DNA of 64,000 nt from a virus, in IMG/VR virus record IMGVR_UViG_3300045988_183936, positions 2,626 through 66,625 of that record. The stretch is one strand, 5' to 3'. This document shows, in pieces, positions 9,217 to 62,300 of the stretch. Position 1 is the stretch's first letter. Each line of letters begins with the position of its first letter. A program made the position numbers and the translations under genes. The notes under the pieces are model-generated. The model had not been told where the DNA came from, ran no database searches, and saw only the letters and a program-made list of their open reading frames with translations.

Positions 9217-10022
9217 TGATAAGGGCTGTTGAGATGCCTATTTTGCATCGTGAAATCGCGGAGTTCCTCGACCCTCGCATCCATGAGGCTGCGCCGGGAA
9301 CTCCGTCGTTTGCACTGCATGGTTTTCGCATCGACGACCGCGAGTATGTGATGGACTGCCTGCCCACCGTGGGACTCATGGTGGGCTACCGCATCGTCGA
9401 GACCGGTGAACTGGTTTCAGCGCTGCAGTTCGACAAGGGTGTTTCTGAGGAAAAACAGATTTTCCATGCGTTGCTGTTTGCACCTTGTGCGAAATATCTG
9501 GCGACGAAAAACTGCGTGTCTTCCCTGCCTGACGGGTCGTATGGTGATATTGAGTGCTTCTATATCATCTACAAAAACCCTGAGGCACGATGCTGGCTGC
9601 CTCGCTGTGAGACTCCTGTCATCGGGGCCGGCAATGCCGAGCAGAGGTTCACGACAGAAGTGCGGCTGAATACGATGGATGGCTTTGTAAGCTATCTGTA
9701 TTTCGATTTCACAACCCGTGGCTCTTGCGGTACAAACTTCTTCAACTCCGTCTGCGATAACATTCAGCGTATGCTGCGTGAGGACTGGGACGCTCTGGCT
9801 GCCACTGTACCCGCCGTTTCTTACGATGCGGGAAGTGAAATTCTGTCCATTCCCTTCTCGAATGTAAATGGCGATTATACGCTGATGGATTTCGAGAAGA
9901 AGTGGGCAGGGGCGCATGAGCTCACCTCACTGGTCACGTCGATTCGGCTGGTCAAAAACGACATCACACTGTATAAAGACAGTCGTTTCGATGTGCCGGA
10001 AGTGGAGGTCGTCCATGAGTAA
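9217..10022 (+). CDS. hypothetical protein (268 aa)
   Basis: ggagaaaaaactATG RBS inside ORF 9000..10022. Confidence 0.5.
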
Positions 10023-10194
10023 GAAGGCTGATGACCGCGTATACAAAGTCAAAATCCAGCGGCCAATCTTCCCTCCCGATGCTCCGTTTCTGGCAATGAG
10101 CGAGTGCGGCTGCATCCAGCCGACACTTCTTCAGGCAACACCGGAGCTAAAGGGCCTGCTTGGGGAAAGGTTGACTATTCCAGCTTTAGTGTAG
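10018..10194 (+). CDS. small hypothetical protein (58 aa)
   Basis: ATGA overlap with the previous stop. Confidence 0.3.
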   Translation, partial: SKKADDRVYKVKIQRPIFPPDAPFLAMSECGCIQPTLLQATPELKGLLGERLTIPALV

Positions 10195-10199
10195 GGTCT

Positions 10200-11575
10200 A
10201 TATAAGGAGAATGAATAATTCTACAGAAAGGAGTGTGAACATTGGAAATCTATAGGGCTTACAAGCTGTGCATCAAACCCACAGAAGCTCAGGCAGCGGA
10301 GATTGAGAACACCTTCCGGTGCTGCCGGTTCGTATGGAACCATTTCCTTGAGCGGAAGTCCAAGGCCTACCAGCGCCGAGGCGAAAGCCTCTCATACTAC
10401 GGTATGAAGAAACTCCTGACGGAGATGAAGGTCTATCTGCCTTGGCTGGGTAGCTGTAACCGGCACGCCTTGAATTATACGATACAGAACCTCTGCGACG
10501 CCTACGACGGGTTCTTCCGTCGCTGCAAAAAAGGCAAAGGCAAGGTGGGATATCCGAGATTCAAGGGACGGAAGAATCCTAAGCAGAGCTTTACCACAGA
10601 TGGCTCGGTCATTGTGACCGAGAAGTTTGTCCAGATTCCCTCTATTGGGAAGGTAAAGCGCGGTAAGGATAAACGTGCCGTTACCGGGGTTCCGGTAAAT
10701 GTCACGGTGTCCCGCAGTGCCTCCGGTAAGTATTGGGCGTCCGTTCTTTGTAAAGAGAAGGTTGACCCTCTGCCGGAGCTGAACGCGGAGGTTGGTATTG
10801 ACGTTGGGCTCCATGTATTTGCCGCCGACAGTGATGGCAACACCTACGAAAACCCTCACTGTTTAATCCATAGTGAGAAGCGGCTGGCTCGTGAGCAGCG
10901 TAAGCTGTCCCGTATGCGGAAGGGTTCTTCCAACTATGAGAAGCAGCGGCTCAAGGTAGCAACCATCCACGAACGTGTTGCAAACCAGCGTCGTGACTAT
11001 ACCCACAAGCTGAGTCGGAAACTCGTTGACGAGAACCAAGTCATCGCAGTGGAAGACCTCAACATCAAAGGGATGGTCAAGAACCACAAGAAGGCAAAGG
11101 CTGTGGCTGATGTCTCTTGGGCTGAGTTTTTCCGGATGCTGGAGTACAAGTCACTGTGGGCGGGACGCACATTCATCCAAATCGACCGGTTCTATCCCAG
11201 CAGCCAGACTTGCAGCTCTTGTGGCTACAAGAACGCCGCTGTGAAAGATGAAAAGGTTCGGGAATGGACCTGCACCCAATGCGGCGCACACCACGACCGC
11301 GACATCAATGCGGCAATCAATATTTTGAGAAAGGCAAAGGATACCTGCACCGCAGCGTAACCGGCATACCCTACTACGGCAGGATGAGCCGAAAGTTACG
11401 CCTGTGGAGACTGGTAAGACCTCGAACCTCACGGCGAGAGGCACGGTCTGCGAAGCAGGAATCGACCGGACGTGTGTACCTGAGAATTACCAATGCGAAT
11501 GGTATGTTCTTTCATGCTATGCATACGGAACACACAAAAGGTTGAATATCCGAACGCACGGGCGACGACTGGTGA
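10200..11575 (+). mobile_element. IS200/IS605-family (IS1341-like) TnpB-only insertion with a putative 3' omegaRNA region
   Basis: Complete tnpB is flanked by non-coding ends. No tnpA was seen. Boundaries are approximate. Confidence 0.5.
10242..11360 (+). CDS. tnpB: TnpB (OrfB) RNA-guided endonuclease, IS200/IS605 family
   Basis: N-terminal YKLCIKPTEAQ...RFVWNH. RuvC-like segments. C-terminal zinc finger CSSCG...CTQCG...DRDINAAINI. TTG start after an AAAGGAG RBS. Confidence 0.8.
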   Translation: MEIYRAYKLCIKPTEAQAAEIENTFRCCRFVWNHFLERKSKAYQRRGESLSYYGMKKLLTEMKVYLPWLGSCNRHALNYTIQNLCDAYDGFFRRCKKGKGKVGYPRFKGRKNPKQSFTTDGSVIVTEKFVQIPSIGKVKRGKDKRAVTGVPVNVTVSRSASGKYWASVLCKEKVDPLPELNAEVGIDVGLHVFAADSDGNTYENPHCLIHSEKRLAREQRKLSRMRKGSSNYEKQRLKVATIHERVANQRRDYTHKLSRKLVDENQVIAVEDLNIKGMVKNHKKAKAVADVSWAEFFRMLEYKSLWAGRTFIQIDRFYPSSQTCSSCGYKNAAVKDEKVREWTCTQCGAHHDRDINAAINILRKAKDTCTAA

Positions 11576-11592
11576 AAGAAAGGAGAAAAATT

Positions 11593-12177
11593 ATGGGACG
11601 TAAAGCAACTCGTTCCGCCGACGAAATCGCCATGAGCAAACAGAATATGTTCATCAGAACCGCTGAAAAGCGTGTTGGGCGTGTTCTGGACGGTCTGAAT
11701 ATGCTGGAGTGCCTGTCTACCCGTTATAGCGGATACTACACAGAAGAACAGGTCAATGCCATGTTCAGTGCCATCCGCAAGAAGGTGGATGAAGCCGAGA
11801 AGAGCTTCCGGACGAACGGGAAAACAAAGCTGTTTTCCTTTTCCGATGAATCCACTTCCTGCGGAGAGTTCAACCTCGAAGCCGGCGAGCGCATCGGTAT
11901 CTCGTTGAAGGTCATCAATGACTGCAATATGAGCGTAGCGCCCAACAAGCTGGAAGTTGAGACCTTCCCTGACGGCAGCGAACCGACTTACTATGAGCTA
12001 TTCAACAGCGAAGGTATGCTTTGCTGCTGTGATGGCGAGGTCGTCACTGTGGTACGCACCGGCGTCGATGAAAACGGCATTGCGGTGGCGTGGCTGTATG
12101 CCACTGACTCCAACGGTGAGACCGGGCCTGAGTTTTCTCTGCCCATTGAAGCTCTGAAGGTCGGCGTGTTCCGCTGA
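11593..12177 (+). CDS. hypothetical protein (194 aa)
   Basis: gaaagaaaggagaaaaattATG RBS inside ORF 11404..12177. Confidence 0.5.
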   Translation: MGRKATRSADEIAMSKQNMFIRTAEKRVGRVLDGLNMLECLSTRYSGYYTEEQVNAMFSAIRKKVDEAEKSFRTNGKTKLFSFSDESTSCGEFNLEAGERIGISLKVINDCNMSVAPNKLEVETFPDGSEPTYYELFNSEGMLCCCDGEVVTVVRTGVDENGIAVAWLYATDSNGETGPEFSLPIEALKVGVFR

Positions 12178-30935: not shown

Positions 30936-31100
30936 ACAAGCTCATCGCCCTTCCACCGATTTTAGTAGTCATGCTCATGTTCCCCCAAGGCACTCTCACC
31001 TCGGCGCTGCGCCGCCTCTCACGCAGCATTCAGCTCATGGCAAGTTCCTGCTTCAGCGACGGAGTTCGTCTCCACAGGCGTAAATTCCGGTTATACCATC

Positions 31101-31137
31101 CGTACTTATTTTTTACTTTGCGTACTTATTTTTACTT
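31101..31137. repeat. tandem about 20-bp direct repeat (cgtacttatttt(t)tactttg x2) abutting the tRNA 3' end
   Basis: Seen at 31101-31120 and 31121-31140. Confidence 0.6.
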
Positions 31138-31225
31138 TGGCGGAGAGAGTGGGATTCGAACCCACGGATGTTTTCGCATCGCCGGTTTTCAAGACCGGTG
31201 CCTTCAACCGCTCGGCCATCTCTCC
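31138..31225 (-). tRNA. tRNA-Ser (anticodon TGA)
   Basis: Reverse complement GGAGAGATGGCCGAGCGGTTGAAGGCACCGGTCTTGAAAACCGG...GGGTTCGAATCCCACTCTCTCCGCCA. 7-bp acceptor stem, long variable arm, anticodon loop cTTGAaa, encoded CCA. Confidence 0.85.
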
Positions 31226-39192: not shown

Positions 39193-41490
39193 TTACCTAC
39201 GACCGGAACGGCGACTACGAGAGCTGCTGCGTGATGTGCTGCGGCTACTGGAACGGCTGCCGCCCCCAGAACGCGAGGACGTACCAGCGGGCTTGGTGTT
39301 GTTGAACTGAAGCGTGAAGTTCGGACCCCAATCGCTGCGCTGGCTATCATCCATCACGAGGTCTGCGGCGAATGTGCCGCCGTCTTTCTTGGTCAGCTTC
39401 GTCTTATGGACGGGCTTTCCGTCGAGGAAGTTCTTGACGTCCTTCTCGGTAAAGGTGATGTGCTGGAACAAAGACGGTTTGGGCTTCTTCCAGATGGTGA
39501 ACTTGCAACCGTTCTTCCAGTTGGAACAGCCGAAGCCAATCTTCCCTTCGATGATGTTGCCACCGCAGCGAGGACACACGCCAATCGGTGTATAGCCCTT
39601 TCGAGTCGGGATGATGCTGGGGTCTACTTTCGGATGCGGCTGCTGCAAGAAATCCTTGAGCATAGCGAGAACGTTCTGTTCCAGCTTTTCCGGTGTCGCC
39701 TTCCCCTCATGTATCTCTTCCTGAATAACCCACCACAAAGCGGTAAGGTCAGGACCACGAAGAGCGTCAGGGAGAATGCGATACAGCTCGCGACCGAGAG
39801 GTGTCGAGATAAGGGACTTCCCTTTCTCCTGTAAGAAACCTCTGGAGATGAGTCCGGAGATTATCTGGTCGCGGGTCGCACTGGTTCCGATGGCACCGTT
39901 ATTCTCCTCCACGTCAGCATCTTTCTTGAGAAGCGTGCTTTTGATGAAAGGGTCGGTCACATATTTGGCGATACGGCTCATGTCCTTCGCCAGCGTGTAC
40001 TGTGTATAACGCGGAAGCGGATTGGTCTCCTTCTCCAAAACCTGAGCATCAGAAACAAAGGCGTCGTAGCTGCCGGCAGGTATCATACTCAATGCCGTAG
40101 GTGTATCAACACCCTCGCGCATCATCACCAGATAACCGGGCTTCAAAACACCGGTGCTGGAGGCTTCCAATGTGGCACCGTCCGGCAGAGGAATAGTCAG
40201 CTTCGTAGTTTCCTTCTCGGCAGGCGGGAAAAACTGGATAAGGTAATACTTGCAGATTGCAAGATATACGTTCCGCTCCCTCTCCGTCATCTTATTGAGG
40301 TCGAGGCTTACATTCTGAGGGATGATTCCGAAATGGGCTTCGATTTTAGAGTCATCGAAGCAGCGGCCCTTCGTCTTGAAGTCCATGCCCTGAATGGGAT
40401 TGAAGTTGCCCTTCCCTACCGTGTTGATGTTTGCGATGACAGTACGGGACGTGGCAGGTGCTTCCGCAAAGTAGTTTTCGGGGAGGTAGCGCACCTGAGT
40501 TCGGTTGTAGGTAATGGCATTATAGTTATCACGCAAGGACTGTGTAATTTCCATTGTGTCATCCAGCTTATAGCCGAAGTTCTTCAGACAGTAGCCCTGC
40601 AATTCCAACATATCGAACGGCAGCGGCGGCTGCTCTTTGGAGACCTTCTTCGTGATAGTCGCTCCAGAGAACTGCTTTCCCGCAACCAACGCGGCCTTGC
40701 TCTCCGCATAAGGCTTATCCAAAATAAGCCCGTCGGCCAGATGAGGGTCATCCTTCTTCGGCTTGTATTTTGCTTCAATGACTTTACCCGCAACGGAGGT
40801 GTTTGCCATGACTTCATAGTATTTTGTCTTTACGTGGTTCTCAATGAGCTTATCACGCTCAACCACGAGCCCCAGCGTCGGGGACTGCACACGGCCAACA
40901 GTCAGCGAAGCATTGTTGACAAGAGAATAGTAGCGACTCATATTGACGCCAACCATCAAGTCAGCAACGCTGCGGGCATAGGCAGACCAGCCCATGTTTT
41001 CAAAGGAACGGTTATCCTTTAGATTGTTGAGCGCACGCTGCAACGCAGGTATGGAAGTGTCACCTGTCGCCAGACGGTAGACAGGGCCTCTATAGTGATG
41101 CCAGCGAAGCAGCTCGTCAATGAGAAGCTGTCCCTCTTCGTCGGGGTCGCCGGCGTGTATGACACAGCTACACTGTTTCAGCAGTTCACCAATGCGGGCA
41201 ACACGCTCGTTGGGGTTCACTCCCCTGCCATTATATTCTTTGATTTTGGTCTGCCAGTTGGGAAAGTATATGGGCAGTGCAGACAAATCCCACTTACCAA
41301 AAGCGGCATCGTAATCTTCAGGTTCTTTCAAAGACAATAGGTGTCCCTGAGAACACACGATGACATACTCACCTTTTACGGTAGCGCCACGGTCGGAACG
41401 TGCCGTGCCGGGGATAGCTTGAGCAATCAAATCACCAAGCTGTTTCTTCTCAGCCAGTATTAGTTTAATGTGAGAACACGACCTTTCCAT
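39193..41490 (-). CDS. topB: DNA topoisomerase III (type IA) with C-terminal zinc ribbons and a Ser/Arg-rich tail
   Basis: TOPRIM AGDPDEEGQ. Type-IA core. CPRCGG, CSNWKNGC. Terminal SRSGGGSRSSSRSTSRSSSRSRRSGRR. Confidence 0.85.
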   Translation of the reverse strand: MERSCSHIKLILAEKKQLGDLIAQAIPGTARSDRGATVKGEYVIVCSQGHLLSLKEPEDYDAAFGKWDLSALPIYFPNWQTKIKEYNGRGVNPNERVARIGELLKQCSCVIHAGDPDEEGQLLIDELLRWHHYRGPVYRLATGDTSIPALQRALNNLKDNRSFENMGWSAYARSVADLMVGVNMSRYYSLVNNASLTVGRVQSPTLGLVVERDKLIENHVKTKYYEVMANTSVAGKVIEAKYKPKKDDPHLADGLILDKPYAESKAALVAGKQFSGATITKKVSKEQPPLPFDMLELQGYCLKNFGYKLDDTMEITQSLRDNYNAITYNRTQVRYLPENYFAEAPATSRTVIANINTVGKGNFNPIQGMDFKTKGRCFDDSKIEAHFGIIPQNVSLDLNKMTERERNVYLAICKYYLIQFFPPAEKETTKLTIPLPDGATLEASSTGVLKPGYLVMMREGVDTPTALSMIPAGSYDAFVSDAQVLEKETNPLPRYTQYTLAKDMSRIAKYVTDPFIKSTLLKKDADVEENNGAIGTSATRDQIISGLISRGFLQEKGKSLISTPLGRELYRILPDALRGPDLTALWWVIQEEIHEGKATPEKLEQNVLAMLKDFLQQPHPKVDPSIIPTRKGYTPIGVCPRCGGNIIEGKIGFGCSNWKNGCKFTIWKKPKPSLFQHITFTEKDVKNFLDGKPVHKTKLTKKDGGTFAADLVMDDSQRSDWGPNFTLQFNNTKPAGTSSRSGGGSRSSSRSTSRSSSRSRRSGRR

Positions 41491-45930: not shown

Positions 45931-48900
45931 TTACTCGGCGAACTGCTCCTTCTTGCGACGGAACATGAACATCGCCGTAGCGCAGCAAGCGATGGCACTG
46001 AACGTACTCAGCATAGCCCACAGGCCGATGCCTTCATCGCCGGTCTGGACGCTATCGCGGAAGTACACAGTCTGAGCACCGTCCATCAGGTCGTTGTGGG
46101 TAGCAATGACATTACCCGCCTCAGCACGACCCTCATACAGAGTCTCGAACACCACGAGCGCATGGTCCTTCAGCTTGGATGCGTCGAACTTGAACGTAAC
46201 ATTCACAGCCCCGTTGGAGGACTTGGGCGTAAAGGTCGTGGTAGCCGTTACCAGATTCCCCTTATTGTCCTTGAGGGCAACACCGGAATCCTTATCCATC
46301 AGCGTACCAACCAGCACGTAGGTCTTGCCCACAGTCAGGCCGGTGTAGTTGACGGTGTCCACGATTTTCACGTTCTTGCCAGCCACGGAGTTCTTCTTGT
46401 CCTTGCCGTCGAAGGTGGCAGTCGTAGAGATGCTCGGACCGGAATAGGTCGGGATGCGCTTGATAGTCACGGTCTGGTCAACATCGTTGATGTCGGTGTG
46501 CGTAGCGACCGTAGTGCCATTGCGGGTCAGAGTCTCGAACACGACCAGCGTCTTGCCACCCAGAATGGAGGCATCGAACACGAAGCTCACATCCACAGTA
46601 CCGTCAGAGGACTTGGCCTCGAACTCGGTAGTGGCGGTGATTTCCTTGTTGTTGCGGCCCAGAACAGGCTCACCTGTCGCCTTGTCCATCAGCTTGCCGA
46701 TTACGGTGTACTTATTGCCGGCAATCAGGCCCTTATAGGACACGGTATCGACCAGCTCGACCTTGCTGTAGGCCCAGAATTCCTTCTTGCCATCAGCAGC
46801 GTTCTTAGCGGAGGTCTTGATTTCAGGGCTGTTGACAGTCACAGTCTGGTCAACATCGTCGATGTCGGCGTGAACTGCGATTTCAATGTCCTTGTACTGC
46901 AGGGACTCGAACACAACGATAGACTGGCCGCGCAGCAGAGATGCATCGAGCACGAAGAACACGTCAACGGTGCCGTTGGACGCCTCAGCGGTGAAAGTAA
47001 CGGAGGAGATAATTTCCTTTCCGTCCTTATCCTTCAGGGGCTCGTTGGTGGCCTTGTTCATCAGCTTACCGGAAACAGTGTACTTCTCCCCAGCAATCAG
47101 GCCCTTATAGGACACGGTATCCTTGATTTCAGCGCGAGCTTCGGGGTCAAGAGTCTTGCCGTTGGTGGCGTTGTTCACGGCCTTGGTGCCGATTTCGGGA
47201 ACGCCGATGGTAACGGTCTGGCCCTCATCGTTGATGTCCTCATGGCTCACAAACACGGGCTTATCGGAGTCACCGGGAACAATCTCGTTGCCCAGATACA
47301 CACGCTCGAATACCACCAGAGACTTGCCGGCCAGCTCAGTGGCATTGAAGACGAACTTCACGTCCACAGTGCCAGTAGCCTGCTCAGGAGTGAACACCTT
47401 GTAGGCGGTAATGGGCTCGCCCTTGGCATCGGTGACGGGCTTGCCGGTTGCCTTATCCATCAGAGTACCGATAGCAATGAACTCCTTACCCACAGGCATA
47501 TTCTCATAGGAGATGGTATCAACCAGAATCACATCGTCCAGAGGCATAAATTCCTTGCCGCCGGCGGAGTTCTTCGCGGTAGTACCAATCTTGGGATTCA
47601 GGACGGTCACGGTCTGGTCAACATCGTTGATGTCGGCATGAGTCGCAACGACCTTCTCACCACGCTTCAGGTCCTCGAAAGCAACGAGGGACTCGCCGCC
47701 CAGCAGAGAAGCATCGAAGGTGAACTCCAGCTCCACATAGCCGGTAAAGTCGGCCTCGGCCTTGAAGGTCTTGGAAGCAGTGATGCGGTTGCCCTGAGCA
47801 TCCAGCAGAGGCTCACCAGTGGACTTAACCACCAGATAGCCCTCGACCGTATAGGTCTTGTTGGGGATGACATCAGTGCATTCCACCTTATCAATGATAG
47901 TGACGGAGGTGGAAGGAATGATTTCCTTGTTGCCGTCCTTATCGGTGGCAGTGGTCTTGACCTTGGGGGTCACGGCCTCATCCTCAGCGACGATGCTCAC
48001 GGTCACAAGACCGGTCTCAGCGTCCAGAGAGATGGTGTCGGGAGTGACATCAAAGCGGATGGGAGTGTCCATCAGCTCGTAGCCCTTGGGGGCCTTGGTC
48101 TCGACCAGATGATAGCCCTCGCCATAAGGCAGGACCAGAGGAGTCACAAAGTAACCCTCGTCATTGGTCACGAATGTATCAATATACTTGACAGTGGGAT
48201 AAGTGACCTTCTGAGACACCTTGTTGCCATCGGGGTCATAAATCTGGAATTCAGCGCCGCCCCAAGGAATGACTTCGCCATCGAACTCATCGACCTTCAC
48301 AACGCGCAGATACGCAGTGATGGGGCCGTTGTTGACAGCCAAATCATGATGGTCACGGTCAACTTCGCCAACCAGAACGGTGAACTCAGGCGCGAGCCCC
48401 GCACCCTTATCCCCGGCCTTGGTCTGATGCACCACATAGGTGCCGTAGGGCAGCTCGATGGACTTGCCGCTGTAACCCAGCTCATTGGTGGTCAGCGTAC
48501 CACGCTCGTCCTCCTTGGCGTTCTCATAGGAGCCAGCAGACTGCAGCCAGTAGATGAACTCAGCGCCGCCCTCGAACTTAGCGGGGCCGGAAGTGCCATC
48601 GGAGATGAACTTGGTGATAGCGAACGTACCACGGTTGATGACCTCAACAGAGGTAATCAGAGGAGCAGAGTTGTGCTCAATGGTGTAGTTCTCAGGCTCA
48701 GAACCAACGGGATACACGGTCTCGTCAATCTGATAGCCGGTAGGAGCCTTGATTTCACGGATGGTGTAATCGTAGCCGCAGTTGTACTCGTCGGTCGTGA
48801 ACGTGCCGTCCTTACCGATGACGTACTCCTTCACCAGCTCGTCGCCCTTATACAGACCATACACAGCACCCTCGAAAACGCCATCGCCGCGAGGAATGTC

Positions 48901-51561
48901 AACGGTCTCGGAGTCGGTCTTCTTGACAGTGACCTTCCACTTCTTCAGTACGTTGCTCACAGCCGTATCGGTCGTCTTCTGGTACTCGACCACAAGACCT
49001 TCCTGAACAGCGGGGATGACGTACTTCACAGCGGTATCGACTTCCTCCAGCGTGTAGTTATTGCCAATCAGGACATCCTTGAAGATGGCAACGCCGTCAG
49101 CGTTGGTGGTAGCGGTCATATCCACAGCATCGCCGGAAATGGCAGTGCCGTACAGACGGAAGGTAATACCCTCGACCAGACCATCCTCGGAGGTCTTGGT
49201 CACGCGCAGGTCGCCGCGCTTGAGCTTGTTGTAGACTTCCACATCAGTGGTGTTGCCCAGCGTCACCTTGACGCCAGCCTTTACACCAGGAACAACGTAC
49301 TTCGCAGCGGTGTTGACTTCTTCAACGCTGTAATTGTTGCCAATCAGAACGTTATTGAAAGTAGCAATACCGTTTGCGTCAGTAACAGCGGTCATATCAA
49401 CGGTCTCACCGTTGATGGCCGTGCCGTACAGCCGGAACGTGATACCAGCGGTCTTGCCGTCCTCAGAGGTCTTCTTGACCTCAACGGCGCCGCGAGCCAG
49501 CTTGTTCTCGAACTGCAGGTTGGTCGTTTTGTTCAGAGAAATAGTCACGCCCTCCTGAATGGTGGGAACGACATATCTCTCAGCGGTGTTGATTTCCTGC
49601 ACGGTGTAGTTGTTACCGATAAGGATATCCTTAAACAGAATCACACCGTTTTCATCGGTGGTAGCCGTCTCGTTGACAGCCGCACCGGAGATGGAAGTAC
49701 CGGACAGGCGGAAAGTCATACCGGACACGAAGCCATCCTCGGAAGTCTTCGTGATTTTCAGATTACCGCGAGCCAGCTTATTCTCGAACTTGGCTTCAGT
49801 GGCGGCGTTGTACTCAACGACAACACCAGCCTGAACTTCAGGAACCACATACTTTGCAGCGGTATTGATTTCCTCAAGTTTGTAGTTCTTACCAATGGGA
49901 ACGTTGTTGAAAGTGGCAACGCCGTTCGCATCGGTAGTAGCGGTCATGTTCACGGACGTACCGCCGGCGGAAGTGCCGGACAGCCGGAAGGTATGACCGG
50001 CAACCTGACCATCCTCAGACATCTTTGTAATCTTGACAGTGCCCTTCTTCAGAACGTTGTTGAAGCTCACTGTCTTGACGTCTCCGATTGCGATGCTCAC
50101 GGTCTGAGACGTCGTCGGAATGTAGTTATCCGACATCTTCTCTGTCACGGTGTACGTACCGGGCTGCAGGTCAGCAATGGTGATTTTGCCGTTGGCAGCA
50201 GTCGTCACGGTTTTATTGAAACCGTTGGGACCGGTCACGGTGAAGCTCACGCCACTGACCTTGCCATCCTCAGAGGTCTTGGCAATGGTCAGGTCTCCGG
50301 TGGTCTTCGTGACCTTTGCTCTGACGTAAGCCGTAACAGGGTCAGGCCAACCATTCAGAGCAACGCAGTCCTGCTTGTCTCCGCCAGCGACAAGAACATA
50401 GGCGTTGACGCTATCGGGGTCAATCACATTGCCCTCAGAAGCATACGACGCAATACCGTTTAGCATACTCTTAGCAGCCTCGGCTGTAGCATTGATTGTC
50501 AAATTATAGCCGCTTTGAATGGTAGTAACTCCCGGCAGGCTGAACGTGAAGTCATCAAAGTTCGGCAGAACTCTGTTGGAGTCATATTCTGTAGCTGTCC
50601 ACTTTGTGCCATCCCACGACAGTTCGATATCTTTTCTTGAGTCAGTAGGCCTATATACGGCAAAACTCGGAATTTCAGCGTGCTGGTTAATCTTCTCCCA
50701 GATATAATCATGTGCTGCCTTGATAGGCTCTGCAACAGAGGCATCATAGGAATGACCGGGACCCACAAACAGGTCACTCAGGTCTCTGTAGCCACCAACG
50801 ATTTCCCAGATAACTTCCTGTGTGGCACACCACGCATAAGTGCCGTTGCCAGCATACCAGAGCAATGTCGAGTCGTCTACCCCACCGTAGCCATAGGCAA
50901 GAGCAAGACGGACATCATCGCTACCCCAAAAAGTATTTGCATCAACAGAAGTGCCACTACCGGGAGCTCCCTTGTGAGGTTCGATACAATAAGCGGGCTG
51001 GCCGTTGAAATATTTTACAACAGCGCTTGTATACGGCTCAAATTCTGACAGCCACGTACTGTTGTAACTCATATCGTCACCGGTCGTAATGGTTCCGGAG
51101 GAACGAGCGGGTGCTCTCATGGCACTGATAGCCCTGGGTGCGTTCTGCGCTGACCCGTAAAGGACGGAAACGCTTACAGGCGTATCCTCTCCAGCGTAGG
51201 GGTCCTGAAGCCCCTCCTCCGTCACGGACGTTTTGACAGACTCATCCTTACCAGCCCCGGATTTATCTTCATCCAGAGCAGCCTGCCCATTTTCGGAGGA
51301 GCTTTCTTTATCCTCAATGACGGGAGAATCGGACTTCTCACTGTCATCAGGATTCTTTGTGTCTTCTGTGGCGTTATAAACCAAATCGCCATCGCCAGAA
51401 TCAGTCTTCCCGACCTCCACAGGGTCAGAAACACTTTCAATAACGACCGAATTGCTGCCGCCATCCGCATCCGCTGCATACACGGACGTCGGGAGCAATC
51501 CAACCACCATCACCAGCGTCAGCAACATAGCTACTACGCCACGCAGCTTCTTGTGTTTCAT
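45931..51561 (-). CDS. sortase-anchored giant adhesin (1876 aa): signal peptide, thioester-like N-terminal domain, Cna-B-type repeats, VaFE-type repeats, C-terminal sorting signal
   Basis: Signal MKHKKLRGVVAMLLTLVMVVGLLPTSVYA. AYCIEP and TQEVIW (TQxxIW) motifs. More than 8 KTSEDG...TATTD.NG.A.F repeats. LVVFE(T/S)L...HxDINDxDQTV repeats. C-terminal VQTGDEG plus TM plus RRKKEQ. Confidence 0.8.
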   Translation of the reverse strand: MKHKKLRGVVAMLLTLVMVVGLLPTSVYAADADGGSNSVVIESVSDPVEVGKTDSGDGDLVYNATEDTKNPDDSEKSDSPVIEDKESSSENGQAALDEDKSGAGKDESVKTSVTEEGLQDPYAGEDTPVSVSVLYGSAQNAPRAISAMRAPARSSGTITTGDDMSYNSTWLSEFEPYTSAVVKYFNGQPAYCIEPHKGAPGSGTSVDANTFWGSDDVRLALAYGYGGVDDSTLLWYAGNGTYAWCATQEVIWEIVGGYRDLSDLFVGPGHSYDASVAEPIKAAHDYIWEKINQHAEIPSFAVYRPTDSRKDIELSWDGTKWTATEYDSNRVLPNFDDFTFSLPGVTTIQSGYNLTINATAEAAKSMLNGIASYASEGNVIDPDSVNAYVLVAGGDKQDCVALNGWPDPVTAYVRAKVTKTTGDLTIAKTSEDGKVSGVSFTVTGPNGFNKTVTTAANGKITIADLQPGTYTVTEKMSDNYIPTTSQTVSIAIGDVKTVSFNNVLKKGTVKITKMSEDGQVAGHTFRLSGTSAGGTSVNMTATTDANGVATFNNVPIGKNYKLEEINTAAKYVVPEVQAGVVVEYNAATEAKFENKLARGNLKITKTSEDGFVSGMTFRLSGTSISGAAVNETATTDENGVILFKDILIGNNYTVQEINTAERYVVPTIQEGVTISLNKTTNLQFENKLARGAVEVKKTSEDGKTAGITFRLYGTAINGETVDMTAVTDANGIATFNNVLIGNNYSVEEVNTAAKYVVPGVKAGVKVTLGNTTDVEVYNKLKRGDLRVTKTSEDGLVEGITFRLYGTAISGDAVDMTATTNADGVAIFKDVLIGNNYTLEEVDTAVKYVIPAVQEGLVVEYQKTTDTAVSNVLKKWKVTVKKTDSETVDIPRGDGVFEGAVYGLYKGDELVKEYVIGKDGTFTTDEYNCGYDYTIREIKAPTGYQIDETVYPVGSEPENYTIEHNSAPLITSVEVINRGTFAITKFISDGTSGPAKFEGGAEFIYWLQSAGSYENAKEDERGTLTTNELGYSGKSIELPYGTYVVHQTKAGDKGAGLAPEFTVLVGEVDRDHHDLAVNNGPITAYLRVVKVDEFDGEVIPWGGAEFQIYDPDGNKVSQKVTYPTVKYIDTFVTNDEGYFVTPLVLPYGEGYHLVETKAPKGYELMDTPIRFDVTPDTISLDAETGLVTVSIVAEDEAVTPKVKTTATDKDGNKEIIPSTSVTIIDKVECTDVIPNKTYTVEGYLVVKSTGEPLLDAQGNRITASKTFKAEADFTGYVELEFTFDASLLGGESLVAFEDLKRGEKVVATHADINDVDQTVTVLNPKIGTTAKNSAGGKEFMPLDDVILVDTISYENMPVGKEFIAIGTLMDKATGKPVTDAKGEPITAYKVFTPEQATGTVDVKFVFNATELAGKSLVVFERVYLGNEIVPGDSDKPVFVSHEDINDEGQTVTIGVPEIGTKAVNNATNGKTLDPEARAEIKDTVSYKGLIAGEKYTVSGKLMNKATNEPLKDKDGKEIISSVTFTAEASNGTVDVFFVLDASLLRGQSIVVFESLQYKDIEIAVHADIDDVDQTVTVNSPEIKTSAKNAADGKKEFWAYSKVELVDTVSYKGLIAGNKYTVIGKLMDKATGEPVLGRNNKEITATTEFEAKSSDGTVDVSFVFDASILGGKTLVVFETLTRNGTTVATHTDINDVDQTVTIKRIPTYSGPSISTTATFDGKDKKNSVAGKNVKIVDTVNYTGLTVGKTYVLVGTLMDKDSGVALKDNKGNLVTATTTFTPKSSNGAVNVTFKFDASKLKDHALVVFETLYEGRAEAGNVIATHNDLMDGAQTVYFRDSVQTGDEGIGLWAMLSTFSAIACCATAMFMFRRKKEQFAE

Positions 51562-53350: not shown

Positions 53351-56300
53351 TTATTTGTTCTTCTTGCGCTTGATGGTGGACACGACCACAACCACAACTA
53401 CCGCACCCAGAGCAATCGCTCCGATTGCGATGTAGATGCCGATTCCGCTATCGCCGGTCTTGGGAGAAACGGTGACAGTCACAGTCTGACCAGCATCATT
53501 GATATCGGTATGGCTCAGGTACGGAGTGCCAGCCACGTCCTTACCGACGTACATTTCCTCAAATACGACAATCTTCGCACCCTTGATGTTCCCCGCGTTA
53601 AAGGAGAACTTCATATCAACGGAGCCATCGGAGGTCTTCGGGGTAAATGTCAGCGTGGAGGTCACTTCCCTATCGTTCGTGTCGCGGAGCGCCACGCCCG
53701 TCTGAGCATCCATCAACTTACCAACCAGCGTGTAGGTCTGGCCGACAGTCAGACCGGAGTAGCTCACGGTATCCACAATCACAAGGCGAGAGGCATAGCC
53801 GCTGGACTTGGCGCCATTGGCAAATGTTGCCGTCGTACTCATGGTAGGACCGCTGCGATAATGGATACGGTCAACGGTCACGGTCTGCTCCTCATCCGTG
53901 ATGTCGGCGTGAGCAGCGATACTCATGCTGTCATAGAAGAGTTCCTCGTAGACAACAAGGGTCTTCCCTGCCACGGAACGAGCGCTGAAGATGAAGGATA
54001 CGGTCGTTGTGCCATCAGCCTTTTCAGGAGTAAAGGTCGCTGTAGCGGTCAAAGGCTTATTGTCCTTGTCCATTACGGCCTTACCCTCGAACTTGTCGCC
54101 AGTCTTCACCTTCTCCATCAGAGTACCGACCAGTGTGTACTCATGGCCGGGAATGAGACCTGTGTAGGTCACAGTATCGACCAGTTCGGCCTTTTCATAC
54201 GGTGAGAAAGTCTTCTTTCCGGTGGAGGCATTGGAAGCAGATGTCTTGACAGACGGGTTTGTGAAGGTAACGGTCTGAGCAGCATCCTCCAAGTCCTCGT
54301 GAGTTGTCAGTGCGGTTTCATCGCCATCATTATAGAAGAGGTACTCGAAAACAACGACATCCTTACCTGCAAGGGCTTTACCATCGAACTCGAATACCAC
54401 ATCGACGGAACCGGAAAGCGCATCGGGAGTAAAGGATGTAGAAGCCGTGACAGGATTGCCGTCCTTATCATTCACTGCCTCGCCAGATGCCTTATCCATC
54501 AGCTTTCCGGCAAGCGTATACTTGTGGGCAGCGGAGAGATGGTCATACTTCACGGTATCGACCAAAACAACCTTTTCTGCAGGGTCGAACAGCTTTCCGC
54601 CATCGGCCTTGTTGGTCGCAGTAGTACCAACAATAATGGGAGCCTTGACGTCAACAGACTGGTCTTCGTCATTGATATCCTTGTGAGATGCAACAACGGA
54701 ATTACCATAGTACAGGTTCTCAAAAACGACCAGCGTACGTCCAAAGAAAGTACGTGCGTCGAACTTGAACTCAACAACCACGGAACCACTCTCCGCCTCA
54801 GGCGTAAAGGTGGTCTCTGCGGTGATGGTCTTCCCTCCTGTGTTCTCTACGGGCTTGCCGGTTGCCTTATCCATCAGAGTACCGACAACCTTGTACGTAT
54901 GCCCGACGATGAGGCCTTCGTAGGTCACGGTATCCTTCAGTACGACATCAGCAGTAGGCTCAAACACCTTCGTGCTATCAGCGGCGTTCTCAGCGGAGGT
55001 CTTGATGGAAGACTTCACCACGGTCACGGTCTGGTCAGCATCCTCAATATCCTTATGAGCCGCAACAGGGTTCTTATCGTCGGCGTTAAAGAACAGCTCT
55101 TCAAATACCACGATGTCACGTCCCTTTACGGAGGAGGCGTCAAACTCGATTGCAGCGACGACCGAGCCGGCAGTGCTCTCCGGAGCGAACTGCATCTCCG
55201 CAACAACAGGTACACCGTTGTTCAGCACAGGCTCACCGGTGGTCTTGTCAACCAAGCTGCTTCTCAGCGTGTAGGTGTGACCGGTAGACAGGTGGCGATA
55301 CACCACGGTATCGTTGATGATAGAGGTTTCAGAGGCATCAATGAGCTTGCCCTCATCAACTGCGCTCACCGCGATAGTTCGCATAATTTCAGGGTTATGG
55401 ACCGTGGTGGTTTGCTCCTCATCATTGATATCCTCGTGAGATGCAATGACAGTCCCGTTAAACAGGAGCTTCTCAAATGCCACGATAGTCTTACCGTACA
55501 GTTCGGTTGCAACAAAGGTAAACTCAACATCGACCGTACCGCAGGCAGCTTCGGGGACGAACTCGACGGAAGCAGTTACGATGTTTCCATCAATATCCTT
55601 GATGGCTTTCCCAGTTTCCTCATCCATCAGGGTTCCGGTCACGGTGTACTTGTGCCCCACAATAAGGTTGTTGTAGAACACAGTATCCTTCAGCGTGACC
55701 GTGGTATCCGGCTCAAACACCTTGCCGTTATCCTCTTTGTTCACGGCAACAGTCTGTACTTCAGGGTTCGTCACAGAGACGGTCTGGCTGCCATCGTCGA
55801 TATCCTTATGGACTGCGACAGGTTCGGTATCGTCAACGTTAAAGTAGATTTCCTCGAATACGACAACATCCTTACCCTTCAAGAAAGAGGCATTGAAAGT
55901 GAACTGCATATCCACAGAGCCGCTTGTTGCCGCAGGCGTGAAGACCTGTTCGAATACAACCTCTGTTCCACCGTTCTTGATAGGTTCGCCAGTCTCCTTG
56001 TTCATCAGCGTACCACGCAGCGTGTACTCGTGGCCGGTGGAGAGATGCTCATAGGTTACAGTATCGGTGATTTTCACGTTTGCAGCGGGGTCAATGAACT
56101 TACCGCCATCAAGTGTTCCAACTGCTGTCGTACCAGTGATATTGGGGTTATGGACCTGCACGGTCTGCCCCTTATCATTGATATTTTCGTGAGAGGCAAT
56201 CTCGGTATCGTTGTAGAAAATCTTCTCAAATACCACGAGGTCTTTGCCGAACAGCTCGGTAGCAGCAAAGGTGAACTCAACATCAATGCTGCCGCTGGCA

Positions 56301-59300
56301 TCCTTTGCCTTGAAGGTCTTCTCAACTGTAATCGCATCACCATTTGCATCGACCACAGGCTTACCGGTTGCCTTATCCATCAGTGTTCCGGAAACCTTGT
56401 ATGTATGACCGTCAATCAGGCCAGTGAAGGAAACAGTATCCAGAATCGTGACCTTCTTTTCAGGTTCAAGCATTTTGCTGCCATCAGCCTTATTGGAAGC
56501 TGTGGTCTTAACAGTGGGTTTCGCTACCGTTACAGTCTGGCCTTCATCGTCAAGGTCTTTGTGGGATGCAACCGCAACAGACTGCTGCTCGTAGAACAGT
56601 TCCTCGAAAACTACGATGTCCTTACCCTGCATACCCGTTGCATCGAAAGTGAACTCCATGTCGATGCTGCCATATGCCTTCTTTGCGGTGAAGGATTTCT
56701 CAAATACAACAGGCTTGCCGTTCAGTAGAACAGGCTCACCAGAGGCCTGATAAACCAGTGTTCCACGCAGCCTATAGTCGTGTTTTGCTGACAGGTGTTC
56801 ATACTTGACAGTATCACGAATTACGACATTTCCGGCTGCATCAATGAATTTTCCGCCGCCCTCGCCATTCTCGGCGGTCGTATCGGACAGTTCGGGCATA
56901 TAGAACGTTGCAGACTGGTCAACATCGTTGATGTCTTCATGCTTGGCGATGATATTTCCATCATAGGAAACAGTCTCAAACGCCACAACCGTCTTCCCAA
57001 ACAGTGCTGAGGAGTCAAACGTAAAGTAGACATCAACAGAACCATCGGAAGATGTGGGCACAAATATCGTCTTGCCCGTGATTTCCCCGTTTCCTCCGAC
57101 CAGCACTCGGCCAGTAGCCTTATCCATCAGGCGGCCTTCAGCAACGTAAGTATGACCGGGAATGAGGTTGTGGTAGCTCACGGTATCGACAAGAACAGTA
57201 GCCAACGAAGAGACGAAGAACTGGTTCTTATCAGGGCTTGCGTTCATCGTCGTACCAATGCTGGGCTCGGTGACAATCACGGTCTGCGCTTCATCACGAA
57301 GGTCTGTATGCTTCGCACAAGGCTCGACGTCGTTCTCATTGAAGAAGAGTTCCTCAAATACCACAACACTCTTGCCTGCGAGCTGAGAGGCATTCAAAGT
57401 GAATGTCATATCCACGGAGCCAAAAGTCCGCTTCGGTGTAAACTTGATAGATACAACCGTGTTGGGCAGTTCTTCACCAGTTTCACCATTCATCAGTCGT
57501 CCAACCAGTGTATACTCGTGGTCGGGTGTCACATGGGAATAGGTAACGGTATCAGTGATGGAAACCTTCTTGGCTGCATCGACCAAATTGTTGCCGCCAT
57601 CAGTGTTCTCAGCGCTCGTTGAGATGCTTGGCGTGTTGATTTTCACGGTCTGGTTATCGTCCTCAAAGTCCTTATGCCCGGCGATAATCGTACCGTTGAA
57701 AGCCAATTCCTCAAACACGACCAAGGACTGACCATAGAGCTGCGAAGCATCGAAGGTAAACTCGACATTGACTTTTCCGTTCACACTGCGGGCTGTAAAG
57801 GTCGTGCTGCCTGTTACGGGAGTTCCATTAGAATTCAGCACAGGAGCGCCAGTCTGCTTATTCACCAGCGTGCCGGACACGGTATATTCGTGTCCCTTAC
57901 TCAGACCGGAATACGTCACGGAATCAATCAGCTTAACAAAACTCTTGGGGTCAAAGAACTTGGAATTGCCCTCTGCGTTCTTTGCGCTGGTCTTGATTTC
58001 CGGAGTATTAAAGGTCAAAGACTGCTTCAGGTCGTTAATGTCAGTGTGTTTGCCCGCAGGAATCTCCTCGTCTTTATTGAAGTACAGATACTCAAACACC
58101 ACGAGTGTCTTCCCTGCCATATTGCTGGCATCAAAGGTAAACTCGACATTCACCGTACCAGCAACACGCTCAGGTGTGAACGTGGTCTTGCCGGTAATCT
58201 CGTTACCCTTCGCATCGAGCAGAGCCTTGCCTGTATCCTTATCCATCAGCTTACCGATGATGGTGTACTCATGGTCGGGAGTCAGATGGCGGTAATACAC
58301 GGTATCCACGATATGAGTCCCCAAAGCGGGGTCAATCAGGTTGGTATTGCCATCATCGTTCAGGGCCTTAGTGCTCAACTCAGGAGCGAAGAAAATGGCT
58401 TCCTGCTTCTCGTCCGTGAGGTCCTTGTGCTCGGCGATAATGGTGTTGTGATAGTACAGAGACTCAAAGGCGATAACGCTCTGGCCGTACAGGATAGATG
58501 CATTCAGCGTGAAAGTCACGTCAATACTGCCATCCTTACTGGTCGGAACGAACTCGGTCTCGCCAGCCACCAATTTACCGTTGCCGTCACGGATAACATC
58601 GCCGGTTTCCTTAGAAACGAGGTTGCCCATCACTTTATATGTGTGACCGGGCACAAGGTCGGTATAAGTCACGGTATCCGTGATAGTGATTTCGTTCAGG
58701 GGCTCAAAGTAGTTGTTCAGAGAGATGCTTTCGTTGATGTTCGTATGAATCGAAGGAGTATTCACAACGACAGTCTGGCCTTCATCATTGATGTCCTTAT
58801 GGACAGCGCAAGGAGTCGTATCAGAAGCGCGGAAATACAGTTCCTCGTAGACGACCAGAGAATCACCGTCAAGCCCAGAAGCATCAAAGGTAAAGACCAT
58901 CTCGGTGTTGCCCTTGGAGGCGGTAGGCGTGAACGTGTTCGTCACAGTCACAGTGCGTCCGCCAGACACCACAGGCTCTCCGGTGAGCTTATTCATCACC
59001 GTACCAGTGATGGTATACTCCTGACCGATGGTAAGGTGCTCGTAGGCAATCGTATCCTTGATGACAACGTTCTTGGCAGGGTCAATGAACTTGCCAGTAC
59101 CCTCACCATCAATAGCAGTAGTGCCAATTTCGGGGTTATATACCTTTACGGTCTGGTTGGCATCTGCATCATCTTCATGTACCGTCAGTACCGTACCACG
59201 GTAGGACAGCTTCTCGAAGATAACCAGCGTATGCCCATACAACTCAGAAGCATCAAAGATGAACTCAACATCTACTGTACCGGTCTTTGCCGTAGGCGTA

Positions 59301-62300
59301 AACGTCGTTGTGCCAGTAATATCATTGCCGGCAGTATCTTTCAGAAACTCGCCCGTAGTTTTATCAAAGACCTTGCCAGTCAGCAGATAGGTATGTCCCT
59401 CAACGACCTTCTCATAAGAGACGGTATCCTTGATTTTTACGCTGTACTGCGCCTCAAGGAACTTCGTTCCGTCGGCAGCATTCACTGCGTTGGTGGTAAT
59501 CTCAGGAGCCTCGACCGTCACGGTCTGGTCAGCATCGTCAATGTCCTCATGCGTCGCAACAGGCACTTCTGCGCTGATAGCAACATGGTAGAGTTTCTCG
59601 AAAGCAACGAGCTGGACGCCGGCAATCTCAGTGGCGTCGAAGGTAAAGACCACATCCACCGTACCTGAAGTGGTGGACGGCGTAAAGGTTGTCTCGCCAA
59701 CAATGAAATTACCATTGTCATCCTTTGCGGGCTGCTGTGTGTCCTTATCCATCATCTGCCCACTCAGTACATATTTATGGCCGGGTGTCAGGTGCTTATA
59801 GGATACGGTATCAACGATAGAAACGCCAACAGAGGGGTCAACTACCTTCACGTTGCCATCGGGGTTATTTGCAGAGGTCTTGATTTCAGGGGCGTAGAAA
59901 GCTACGGTCTGGTCGGCATCCGCAATGTCCTTATGGCTTGCCACCTCGACACCATCACGATGCAGCGTATCGAAAACAACAACAGCATCGCCGGCAATCA
60001 GAGAAGCATCAAAGGTAAAGGTCAGCTCCGTGGAACCATTGAAGTTGTCACCTGCAACAAATGTGTTTGTTGCAGTGATGCGCTTACCGCTGCCATCCAG
60101 CAAAGGTTCACCTGTAGACTTCAGCACAAGATATCCATTCACGGTATAAGTCTTGCCGGGGATTACATCCGTGCAGGATACTGTATCCTCGATAGTCACA
60201 GATGTCAGGGGCTCCATAGTCTTCTCGCCAGCAGCTCCCTTTGCCATGGTCTTGATTTCCGGTGTCACAGGACTATCCTTTGCCGTAACCACGATGACCT
60301 TCTTATCACCTTCCATCGTAGTGTTCTCTGCGTCAACATTGAACTCGATGGGAGTGGAATCCAGCTTGTAGCCCTTGGGCGCCGTTACCTCGACCAGCGT
60401 ATAGCCGCGACCAAACGGCAGCTCCTCAGGAGTAATCAGCTTACCTTCGGCATCGGTCTTAAATGTAGAGACAGTTGAAAGGCCATTCTTGAGAGAAACC
60501 ACATCGCCCTCAGGGTCGTAGATTTGGAACTCCGCACCACTGTAAGGAATCAGGGTGTTATCCATCGCATCGAGCTTGACAATGCGAACAGAAGCATAGT
60601 AAGGACGGTCGTTCAAAACATAGAAGTATGTCTTGCCGTTCTCGGAAATAGTGACCTCAAAACCATGGAGCATATCAGCGCTCTCAAAGTCCTTCGTCTG
60701 GTCAATGATGTATGTACCGTAAGGCAGAGCCTTGGTGGTAGCATACCCGTCCTCTCCAACAACGATATGGTCTCGGTCGGTGGTCTTCGCGTTGGCGTAA
60801 CTGCCAGCAGCCTTCAGGTAGACGTCGAACTCGGCTCCCACTTCGGGAGTCACCTTTCCGGTCGGGAGAGCTTCCTCAAGGCCGGTAGCTCCCACATCGG
60901 AGTGCTTGAAAATCTTGATGTAGCCCTTGATGACTCGCTCGGTAACGCCCAAGTCGGGAGCCGCATTGATTTCGATAACGTAGTTCTTCGCCTCGGCACC
61001 GACGTGATACACACTGTCGTCCAGCAGATAGCCAACGGAAGGGACGATTTCCTTGATGGTCCAATTATCACCACAGATGTAAACGTCCGTAGTGAACTTG
61101 CCATTGGCATCAGTGGTGTACTGCTTCACCAGCTCATCACCGTCATACAAACCGTAAACGGCACCTTTCAGCGTGGCATTACCCTGTGCTGTAGTCGTCT
61201 CATTATCACGCTTTGTGACGGTCACAGACCACTTCTTCAGCACGTTATGGATAGATGCGGTCGTGGTCTTATCCAACTTGACGTCAATACCGTCCTTGAC
61301 GGCGGGAATGACGTAGCGGGCGGCAGTATCAACTTCTTCCAGAGAGTAATTATAACCGACCAACACGTTCTCGAAGGTCGCCACGCCAGCAGCGTTGGTC
61401 ACGGCGGTCATATCAACGGCCTGTCCCTGTGCGGAAGTTCCTGTCAGGCGGAATTTGATGCCCTCAACGATACCATCTTCAGAGGTTTTAGTGACACTCA
61501 CTGTACCACGGGCCAGCTTATTATACACGTTGGCATTTGTGGTTTTATTCAGAGTGACCACGATGCCGGAAACGACATCGGGCACAATGTACTTCTCAGC
61601 AGTGCCGACCTCCTGAACGGTGTAATTTTCACCAATCAGGACGTTAGAGAAGGTCGCAATACCCTTGGCGTTTGTAGTGGCGGTCATGTCCACTGTGTCA
61701 CCGTTACCAGCCGTGCCGGTCAAGCGGAACTTGATGCCAGACACCAGACCATCTTCAGCAGTCTTGGTGACTGTGACAGTACCACGAGCCAGCTTGTTGT
61801 AGACGGCGGCATCAGTAGTCTTACCCACAGCAATGGTGATACCATTCTGTGCTGCAGGAACCACATAGCGGGCAGCCGTGCCGACCTCGGTCAGCACATA
61901 GCTGTTGCCAACCAGCACATCCTTAAACTCGGCAATACCCTGTGCGTTGGTAGTCGCATCCAGAGACACTTTCGCACCGGAGGTTGATGTGCCTTCCAGA
62001 TGGAACTTCACACCGGAAACCAAACCATCCTCGGAGGTCTTGGTGACACGGAGATTACCACGAGCAAGGTCGTTACGGAACGACAGCTTGGTCGTATCGT
62101 TGACCTTTACAGTCACGCCAGCCTGAACCGCAGGAACCACATAGCGAGCCGGAGTGTTGGCTTCCTGCACCGTATACTTCGAACCGATAGGCACGTTGGA
62201 GAATGTCACTACACCCTTGGCATCTGTCTTAGCGGTCATGTTGACGGTCGTACCAGCATCGGAAGTGCCGGTCAGTGTGAATGTGAGGTTACTCACAACA

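Follow-up and report, generated by a model that had tools for sequence, protein, structure and literature searches.

We analysed a 64,000-nucleotide stretch of DNA (positions 2,626 to 66,625 of the IMG/VR virus record IMGVR_UViG_3300045988_183936), called the window below, and found that its single TnpB gene belongs to an element of 1,380 bp with sharply defined ends. We think it likely that this element is a non-autonomous selfish unit of TnpB and its guide RNA (omegaRNA), which homes or is retained by cutting element-free (empty) alleles, and which was moved in trans by a transposase of the DDE type. A preliminary description of this DNA, made from the letters alone, had called the element IS200/IS605-type. 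That holds for the protein and for the core of the RNA; it does not hold for the ends, which are imperfect terminal inverted repeats (TIRs), with target-site duplications of 7-8 bp flanking the sister copies.

The limits of the element were found by a blastn comparison with eight copies from IMG/VR and nine from metagenomes. The former came from a protein-based scan (with TnpB identity to the window copy of 87-95%), the latter were retrieved by a DNA-pattern scan. Homology to the sister copies is confined to positions 10173-11552, and the flanks outside these limits are unrelated between the compared copies. Comparison with other copies, which the preliminary description had itself proposed, thus put both ends about 25 nt away from its limits of 10200 and 11575. 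The same 1,380-bp unit with sharp ends was present at at least eight different sites. It is made of a 69-nt left end (LE), tnpB, and a 192-nt right end (RE). In two copies at the 81% level (L200 and L208) the left end could not be read, and a megablast search against phage and plasmid collections gave no match. The features of the element and of its junctions are as follows.

10173..11552, plus strand: whole non-autonomous TnpB/omegaRNA element, bounded by the homology limits in all sister copies
10015..10194, plus strand: interrupted upstream gene, 59 aa (77 aa in empty alleles)
10160..10172, plus strand: left junction, host TTGGGG (10160-10165) and 7 nt (aaaggtt), after which LE begins
10173..10241, plus strand: LE, with the left TIR, an in-frame stop codon TAG and a ribosome-binding site
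~10173-10193, plus strand: left TIR, GACTATTCCAGCTTTAGTGTA
10192-10194, plus strand: in-frame TAG within LE, terminating the interrupted upstream gene
10227-10233, plus strand: ribosome-binding site AAAGGAG, within LE
10242..11360, plus strand: tnpB, 372 aa, TTG start, with RuvC residues D187/E271/D354 and zinc finger C324xxC327...C344xxC347
11373..11463, plus strand: predicted omegaRNA core, three helices, common to canonical IS605 relatives
11464..11552, plus strand: predicted omegaRNA 3' domain and RE, with pairing-compatible changes and little covariation
11531-11552, plus strand: right TIR, the last ~22 nt, matching the reverse complement of LE
11553..11572, plus strand: putative guide segment in flanking DNA outside the element, AACGCACGGGCGACGACTGG, matching 15 empty alleles

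The open reading frame (ORF) at 10242-11360 has the domain layout of a TnpB, with an HTH/REC N-terminus, an OrfB_IS605 RuvC core and a zinc-ribbon TNB domain. Its Pfam matches were OrfB_IS605 (1.1e-29), Cas12f1-like_TNB (2.5e-26) and HTH_OrfB_IS605 (4.3e-16), while the NCBIfam model NF038281 (IS200_TnpB) scored 437.9 bits against a curated cut-off of 425 and NF040570 scored 344.7 bits against a cut-off of 100. When aligned to ISDra2 TnpB (structures 8EXA, 8H1J; E 1.6e-81), residues D187, E271 and D354 fell on D191, E278 and D361, and both CxxC pairs of the zinc finger were kept. The TnpB hallmarks reported in the preliminary description are therefore borne out, and the truncation of RuvC residues that it had named as a possible objection was not seen. 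The TTG start proposed there also stands, with TTG or GTG used at the same codon in the sister copies, 8 nt after the conserved AAAGGAG. Judged by its sequence, the ORF is a true TnpB with intact nuclease residues, for which RNA-guided cutting is predicted. The protein appears to be under purifying selection, because the ratio of nonsynonymous to synonymous divergence (dN/dS) among tnpB copies at different sites was 0.08-0.17, with synonymous divergence (dS) of 0.16-0.58. A TldR-like nuclease-dead TnpB was considered and ruled out by the intact triad and zinc finger and by the polymorphic locus. As had been claimed, tnpA is absent: a tblastn search with the TnpA of a relative (L009) found no Y1 TnpA in the element or elsewhere in the 64-kb window (best E 1.8). 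We also observed that one copy at the same insertion site as the window copy (L205, 95.4% identical) has an internal stop in tnpB, which makes it a pseudogene or reflects an assembly error.

Downstream of tnpB, a nucleotide profile of the 3' region found relatives with 45-49% protein identity, the matches extending ~110 nt past the stop codon. The RNA alignment was made of 20 sequences, eight from the TnpB family of the window (the window copy included) and 12 from canonical IS605 relatives. In it we recognized 17 pairs in three helices; 97.3% of their cells were standard pairs, compared to 24-41% with the partners slid by 1-3 columns. Compensatory changes occurred in 13 of the 17 core pairs, and the observed covariation score was reached by none of 500 shuffles. 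The covariance model scored 88.5 bits at 11373-11463, a match by construction, as the window provided one of the 20 building sequences. Judged by this alignment, a conserved structured omegaRNA is present directly after the stop codon of tnpB and runs to the right end. It is the position that the preliminary description had expected, and the alignment, far from exposing the lack of conserved 3' structure that was named there as a possible objection, revealed a covarying RNA. The case for structure is made by covariation, not by thermodynamics: the 3' flank, described earlier as GC-rich and structured, is structured by the former measure, whereas the single-sequence fold of the 192-nt RE was unremarkable (z = -1.87) and the GC content of 0.535, versus 0.512 for the window, is not notable.

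In the 3' domain (11464-11552), a long stem (UCGACC...GGUUGA, GUGUGU...ACACAC) surrounds two hairpins; the changes there are compatible with pairing, and the diversity is too low for real covariation. This domain is specific to the family of the window element, while the core is shared with the canonical IS605 relatives. Searches of Rfam at gathering and permissive thresholds detected no RNA family in the 3' region. An IStron was ruled out, since LE has only 69 nt and no Rfam intron match appeared at E<=10 in 9800-12000.

Members of the IS200/IS605 family have no inverted repeats, make no target duplication and carry LE directly 3' of a conserved 4-5-nt target. In the canonical relatives mentioned above (45-49% identity) the ends are hairpins, tnpA is present, whole or as a remnant, RE finishes in GAGTGTCAA, and no duplication is seen. 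The window element and its sister copies depart from this pattern: inverted repeats and, in sister copies, target duplications are present, as in TIR elements of the DDE type, and a conserved tetra- or pentanucleotide target is absent. A Y1 TnpA is absent from the element and from the window, though one may be supplied in trans. Between LE and the reverse complement of RE, 15-16 of ~21 positions agree (GACTATTCCAGCTTTAGTGTG versus GGATATTCAACCTTTTGTGTG). A match of 15/22 was reached by 13 of 20,000 shuffles and by 2 of 20,000 random 24-mers of the window (p ~1e-4 to 6e-4). RE is almost invariant among copies; the LE hairpin is weak, and degenerate in the window copy.

Several sister copies are flanked by direct repeats of 7 nt (8 nt counting a shared G), namely atataat, agcaaca, gttctgg and cataacg. 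At two sister sites the 7-mer found on either side of the element occurs only once in the empty alleles, and therefore the target duplication is real. We found similar duplications at five further sites; at the site of L001 the empty allele was too diverged to be read. The duplication of L210 is imperfect (8 nt with one mismatch), while in a divergent subfamily L204 has an exact duplication within the 8-9 nt class and L008 one of ~10 nt. LE abuts a different 7-mer at each site, with a conserved G-run located 7-8 nt further left. We could not devise a mechanism by which the single-strand Y1 route would yield a target duplication of 7-8 nt. The idea that one sister copy (right flank GGTTCGAGTCC) splits a tRNA was rejected, as the empty site, when rebuilt, has no tRNA according to ARAGORN.

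Empty alleles were searched for by a scan with the joined flanking proteins, which gave 16 related loci, 15 of them holding the insertion site. The element was absent from all 15. In each of these alleles we found the 20-mer of positions 11553-11572, AACGCACGGGCGACGACTGG, with 0-2 mismatches and with CTGCGGG directly before it; the 20-mer had no further match within the window. Characterised TnpBs take the guide from the flank just after RE. By analogy, we infer that the guide of the window element occupies the same position, which agrees with the placement made in the preliminary description. If the nuclease cuts the empty allele, this is the relation between guide and allele that one expects.

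Judging from the flanks, the transposon-associated motif (TAM) read by the nuclease is probably G-rich, roughly (T)TGGG(G). A G-run was located directly 5' of the duplicated block or of the guide match at eight of nine independent junctions (binomial p ~6e-16 given a GGG frequency of 0.0095), with the variants TTGGGG, CTGGGG, CAGGG, AAGGG and GCGGG. The G-run may reflect a preference of the transposase, the TAM of TnpB, or both; selection alone would produce the pattern if only TAM-adjacent insertions can home. A speculative extension, to which we assign little credence, is that the G-run serves as the TAM and also takes part in the choice of the insertion site, RE being joined immediately 3' of the TAM. 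In such a scheme TnpB, or its reading of the TAM, would guide the partner transposase; alternatively, the RNase-H-fold active site of TnpB itself would take part in integration.

The insertion in the window has its own history. The preliminary description had put the element between two genes of an array. The array with genes on the same strand is there, but the element replaces the last 24 of the 77 codons of the upstream gene (10015-10194), which is intact in the empty alleles. The interrupted gene now codes for 59 aa, its last six codons and stop being supplied by LE. This copy has no duplication, and 55 nt of the target are missing in comparison with the empty alleles. LE is joined 7 nt after the host TTGGGG (10160-10165), a geometry equal to that of the G-run plus duplicated block of the sister insertions, while the sequence joined to RE is preceded by GCGGG in the empty alleles. 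Because the 55 nt between them were lost, both junctions have normal geometry at two different G-runs. The simplest reading would be a transposase-mediated adjacent deletion after the insertion.

Identity was 95-99.9% between copies that occupy one site in different elements, compared to 92-96% for copies at different sites. Measured against the diversification of the host elements, the insertions are therefore old, being kept as presence/absence polymorphisms. Such a combination of polymorphism and age argues against domestication at a fixed locus as well as against a very active transposon. The exact TnpB protein was present on five metagenome contigs; the four shown, on scaffolds of up to 135 kb, all have it at the site of the window. 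We also observed one genome that has the element twice, the copies lying 6.2 kb apart (contig IMGVR_UViG_3300029582_000367 (L002, L006) / L209). The two copies of L209 are 97.5% identical to each other, versus 96.1% for its site-C copy and the L006 copy at the same site; since they are closer to each other than to the same-site copy, gene conversion between copies in one genome is suggested.

In the mechanism that we propose, tnpB is probably transcribed together with the surrounding same-strand gene array. TnpB would process the 3' part of the mRNA into the omegaRNA, whose last ~16-20 nt would come from the flank; such processing of the mRNA 3' end is known for TnpB (PMC10278001). The complex would cut element-free alleles in a co-resident relative, at a guide match preceded by a G-rich motif of about (T)TGGG(G). 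Recombinational repair with the occupied copy as template would then copy the element in (homing), or else the rival element would be destroyed. New insertions would be made by a transposase acting in trans, most likely of the DDE type, able to recognise the inverted repeats and to cut in a staggered manner; we infer that the classical single-strand IS200/IS605 route was not used. There is precedent (PMC10691335) for TnpBs carried by transposons with inverted repeats, and for solo TnpBs that share the ends of such transposons and are presumed to be mobilised in trans. The window copy would have arisen by insertion, followed by adjacent deletion of the 55 bp between two G-runs by the same machinery.

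Several observations weigh against the selfish unit just described. The proposed transposase has no counterpart in our searches: the element and the window have none, scans of IMG/VR with LE and RE returned only TnpB copies, mini-omegaRNA modules (described below) and unrelated sequence, and no transposase domain is on record for the window genes from ~1 to 54 kb. An LE 17-mer had 56 matches in IMG/VR, the new ones being unrelated coding sequence, with no partner element among them. The length of the duplication varies (7/8, 8/9, ~10 nt), a variation that would be unusual if one DDE enzyme were responsible, and three sites, that of the window included, are without duplication. The TAM is derived from flanks only. 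A scan for promoters and terminators gave nothing above chance, hence no promoter for the element. Finally, copies at different sites differ by 4-8%; transposition is thus not recent, and present-day mobility is unproven.

The scan of IMG/VR with an RE 17-mer gave extra matches that were a conserved region upstream of a repressor gene, plus chance matches. This region, upstream of an XRE-type repressor gene, has the 17-mer AAAAGGTTGAATATCCG in common with the RE of the element (loci L177, L178, L181, L182, L184, L186, L188, L192, L194 and L198), which we judged to be a coincidence.

Could the element be an ordinary solo TnpB of the IS200/IS605 family (the IS1341-group), mobilised by single-strand peel-and-paste with a Y1 TnpA acting in trans? 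In favour of it, the protein scores above the cut-off of the IS200_TnpB model, the 45-49% relatives are IS605 elements proper, equipped with tnpA and hairpin ends, and LE still resembles the hairpin of these relatives and their ATATAAG motif. We nevertheless hold this explanation to be unlikely, as the family is defined without inverted-repeat ends and without duplications, and here both occur, the duplications being true ones of 7-8 bp. Besides, LE abuts a variable 7-mer in place of a conserved tetra- or pentanucleotide, and the canonical relatives show no duplication. The preliminary description had considered domestication as an RNA-guided nuclease or regulator. In such a reading, an immobile TnpB would serve the host element as a regulator or as a programmable nuclease for defence or offence, with fixed guides supplied by the omegaRNA in cis or by the mini-omegaRNA near 31 kb. 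What speaks for it is the location in a same-strand gene array together with strong purifying selection, a second guide-like RNA without TnpB in the window, and the nuclease-dead TnpB relatives with guide arrays in related elements. Such a role is improbable given that the element is present or absent at its insertion site, that the same 1,380-bp unit with sharp ends and duplications is found at at least eight sites, that the catalytic residues are intact, and that the only match of the guide is to the empty site of the element itself, with no other within the window.

The divergence of 4-8% between copies at different sites, the premature stop in the L205 copy and the degenerate LE hairpin of the window copy would also fit a decaying relic, an old insertion whose nuclease and RNA have lost their function. 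The dN/dS of 0.08-0.17, the retention of all three RNA helices with compensatory changes, the almost invariant RE and the perfect or nearly perfect match of the guide to the empty alleles make such decay very improbable. The selfish TnpB/omegaRNA unit, homing or retained by cutting empty alleles and transposed in trans, is our preferred explanation.

The covariance model had a second match in the window, with a sequence outside the training set:

31043..31106, minus strand: putative stand-alone mini-omegaRNA without TnpB (40.3 bits, E 1.3e-8)

It keeps helices 1-3, with a 5-nt loop replacing the apical stem, and is located directly downstream of a tRNA-Ser gene (31138-31225, minus strand), with no TnpB adjacent. 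Many paralogues of it exist in related elements. Its 3' extension to ~30985 ends in CCTTGGGGGAAC, after which ~15 nt that differ between related elements are followed by conserved sequence again. At its 5' edge a tandem duplication of ~19-20 nt, caaagtaaaaa(a)taagtacg, is present in two copies (31101-31139, minus strand) and takes in the first six bases of the module. In L190/L191, the same core is joined instead to the last 20 nt of the RE of the TnpB element (CACAAAAGGTTGAATATCCG), with the boundary exactly between GGGG and AACATGAGC.

At positions 2990-4560 of L018 we noticed a gene for a truncated TnpB relative (TnpB2), 52-53% identical over residues 4-315, in which GISLG replaces the catalytic GIDVG, and the zinc finger and RuvC-III are missing. 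It fits the description of a TldR-like nuclease-dead TnpB; relatives of this type are also found at L012, L017-L036, L040, L189 and L190. A mini-omegaRNA comes after TnpB2, and so does an array in which 36-nt hairpin repeats (GGTATACACCACCCNGAAATAACAGGGTTGTATACC) alternate with 30-nt spacers that differ between elements. Such repeats are absent from the window. We counted 35 distinct spacers in these CRISPR-like arrays, and a protospacer search with all 35 against the window and the related loci gave no match outside the arrays. From its sequence, TnpB2 with its arrays looks like a nuclease-dead, TnpB-derived CRISPR-like system. On one related contig, a second TnpB element, of the canonical IS605 type, lies ~2 kb downstream of the element (L003 6448-6650 / L185 7802-8000 / L201); it has a hairpin LE, only a remnant of tnpA, and an RE ending in GAGTGTCAA.

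The larger genes of the host element in the window include the following.

39193-41490, minus strand: type IA topoisomerase
45931-51561, minus strand: large ORF, 1876 aa, with thioester, SpaA and TQ adhesin domains
53351-63979, minus strand: large ORF, 3542 aa

Domains on record around the element are those of PemK and Zeta toxins, Fic, VWA/CobT, flotillin, type IA topoisomerase and thioester/SpaA adhesins. Related contigs of up to 192 kb are entered as viral in IMG/VR. Because its genes also fit a conjugative plasmid or an integrative element, an identity that would suit the host as well as that of a phage, we refer to it as a large mobile element and not as a phage.

Among characterised systems, ISDra2 TnpB with its omegaRNA (8EXA, 8H1J, 8BF8) is a close likeness. 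The proteins align over their full length (E 1.6e-81), with the same D-E-D triad and zinc finger, and in both systems the 3' end of the gene encodes the RNA, which extends to RE and takes its guide from the flank. The role proposed for both, cutting the empty site, is also shared (PMC10055086). In contrast to ISDra2, the window element is without tnpA, has inverted-repeat ends and duplications, an expanded 3' RNA domain that no Rfam family matches, and an apparent TAM that is G-rich instead of TTGAT. With the DDE-associated and solo TnpBs of Altae-Tran et al. 2023 (PMC10691335) it shares symmetrical inverted ends, a distance of less than 250 bp between the 3' end of tnpB and the transposon end, and a presumed mobilisation of solo copies in trans. 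Unlike those TnpBs, it has no partner transposase that we could find, and its TnpB and RNA core are close to ordinary Y1-type IS605 relatives. Among the six published DDE branches we could assign it to none. As in the IS1341-group, the TnpB-only members of IS200/IS605, there is a single tnpB in a non-autonomous unit of ~1.3-1.4 kb; that group has hairpin ends and lacks inverted repeats and duplications, whereas the window element has both.

A TnpB-family nuclease in a duplication-making transposon is also seen in the eukaryotic TIR/TSD (target-site duplication) transposons that carry Fanzor, where the duplication separates the TAM from the remainder of the guide match. The window element differs in being prokaryotic, with a compact bacterial TnpB, and its duplicated block would make up the initial 7-8 nt of the guide and would not belong to the scaffold. 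The free-standing homing endonucleases of phages (intronless homing) offer a functional parallel: a nuclease gene in an array cuts the co-resident allele that lacks it, and repair spreads the gene. Here, unlike in homing endonucleases, recognition would be RNA-guided, with the target defined by the insertion itself.

TnpB with omegaRNA is common, and the basic finding is ordinary; the novelty, a modest one, is in the ends and duplications that fall outside the IS200/IS605 pattern. Characterised TnpBs mostly read T-rich motifs, and the G-rich TAM to which the flanks point for this compact 372-aa relative of ISDra2 TnpB could broaden the choice of sites open to miniature genome editors. The natural 64-nt cores of the mini-omegaRNAs hint at the minimum size of a working scaffold. 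A guide that matches the empty alleles of 15 related elements is a natural case that makes RNA-guided homing directly testable. If TAM-guided insertion were true, the element would be a minimal natural link of an RNA-guided nuclease with cut-and-paste insertion in an IS605-derived lineage, and the mini-omegaRNAs, the nuclease-dead TnpB2 and the CRISPR-like arrays would be further steps on the path from TnpB to CRISPR. The combination of a protein and RNA core of IS605 descent with ends of the TIR/TSD type suggests that the module of nuclease and guide can move between transposition mechanisms within a narrow lineage.

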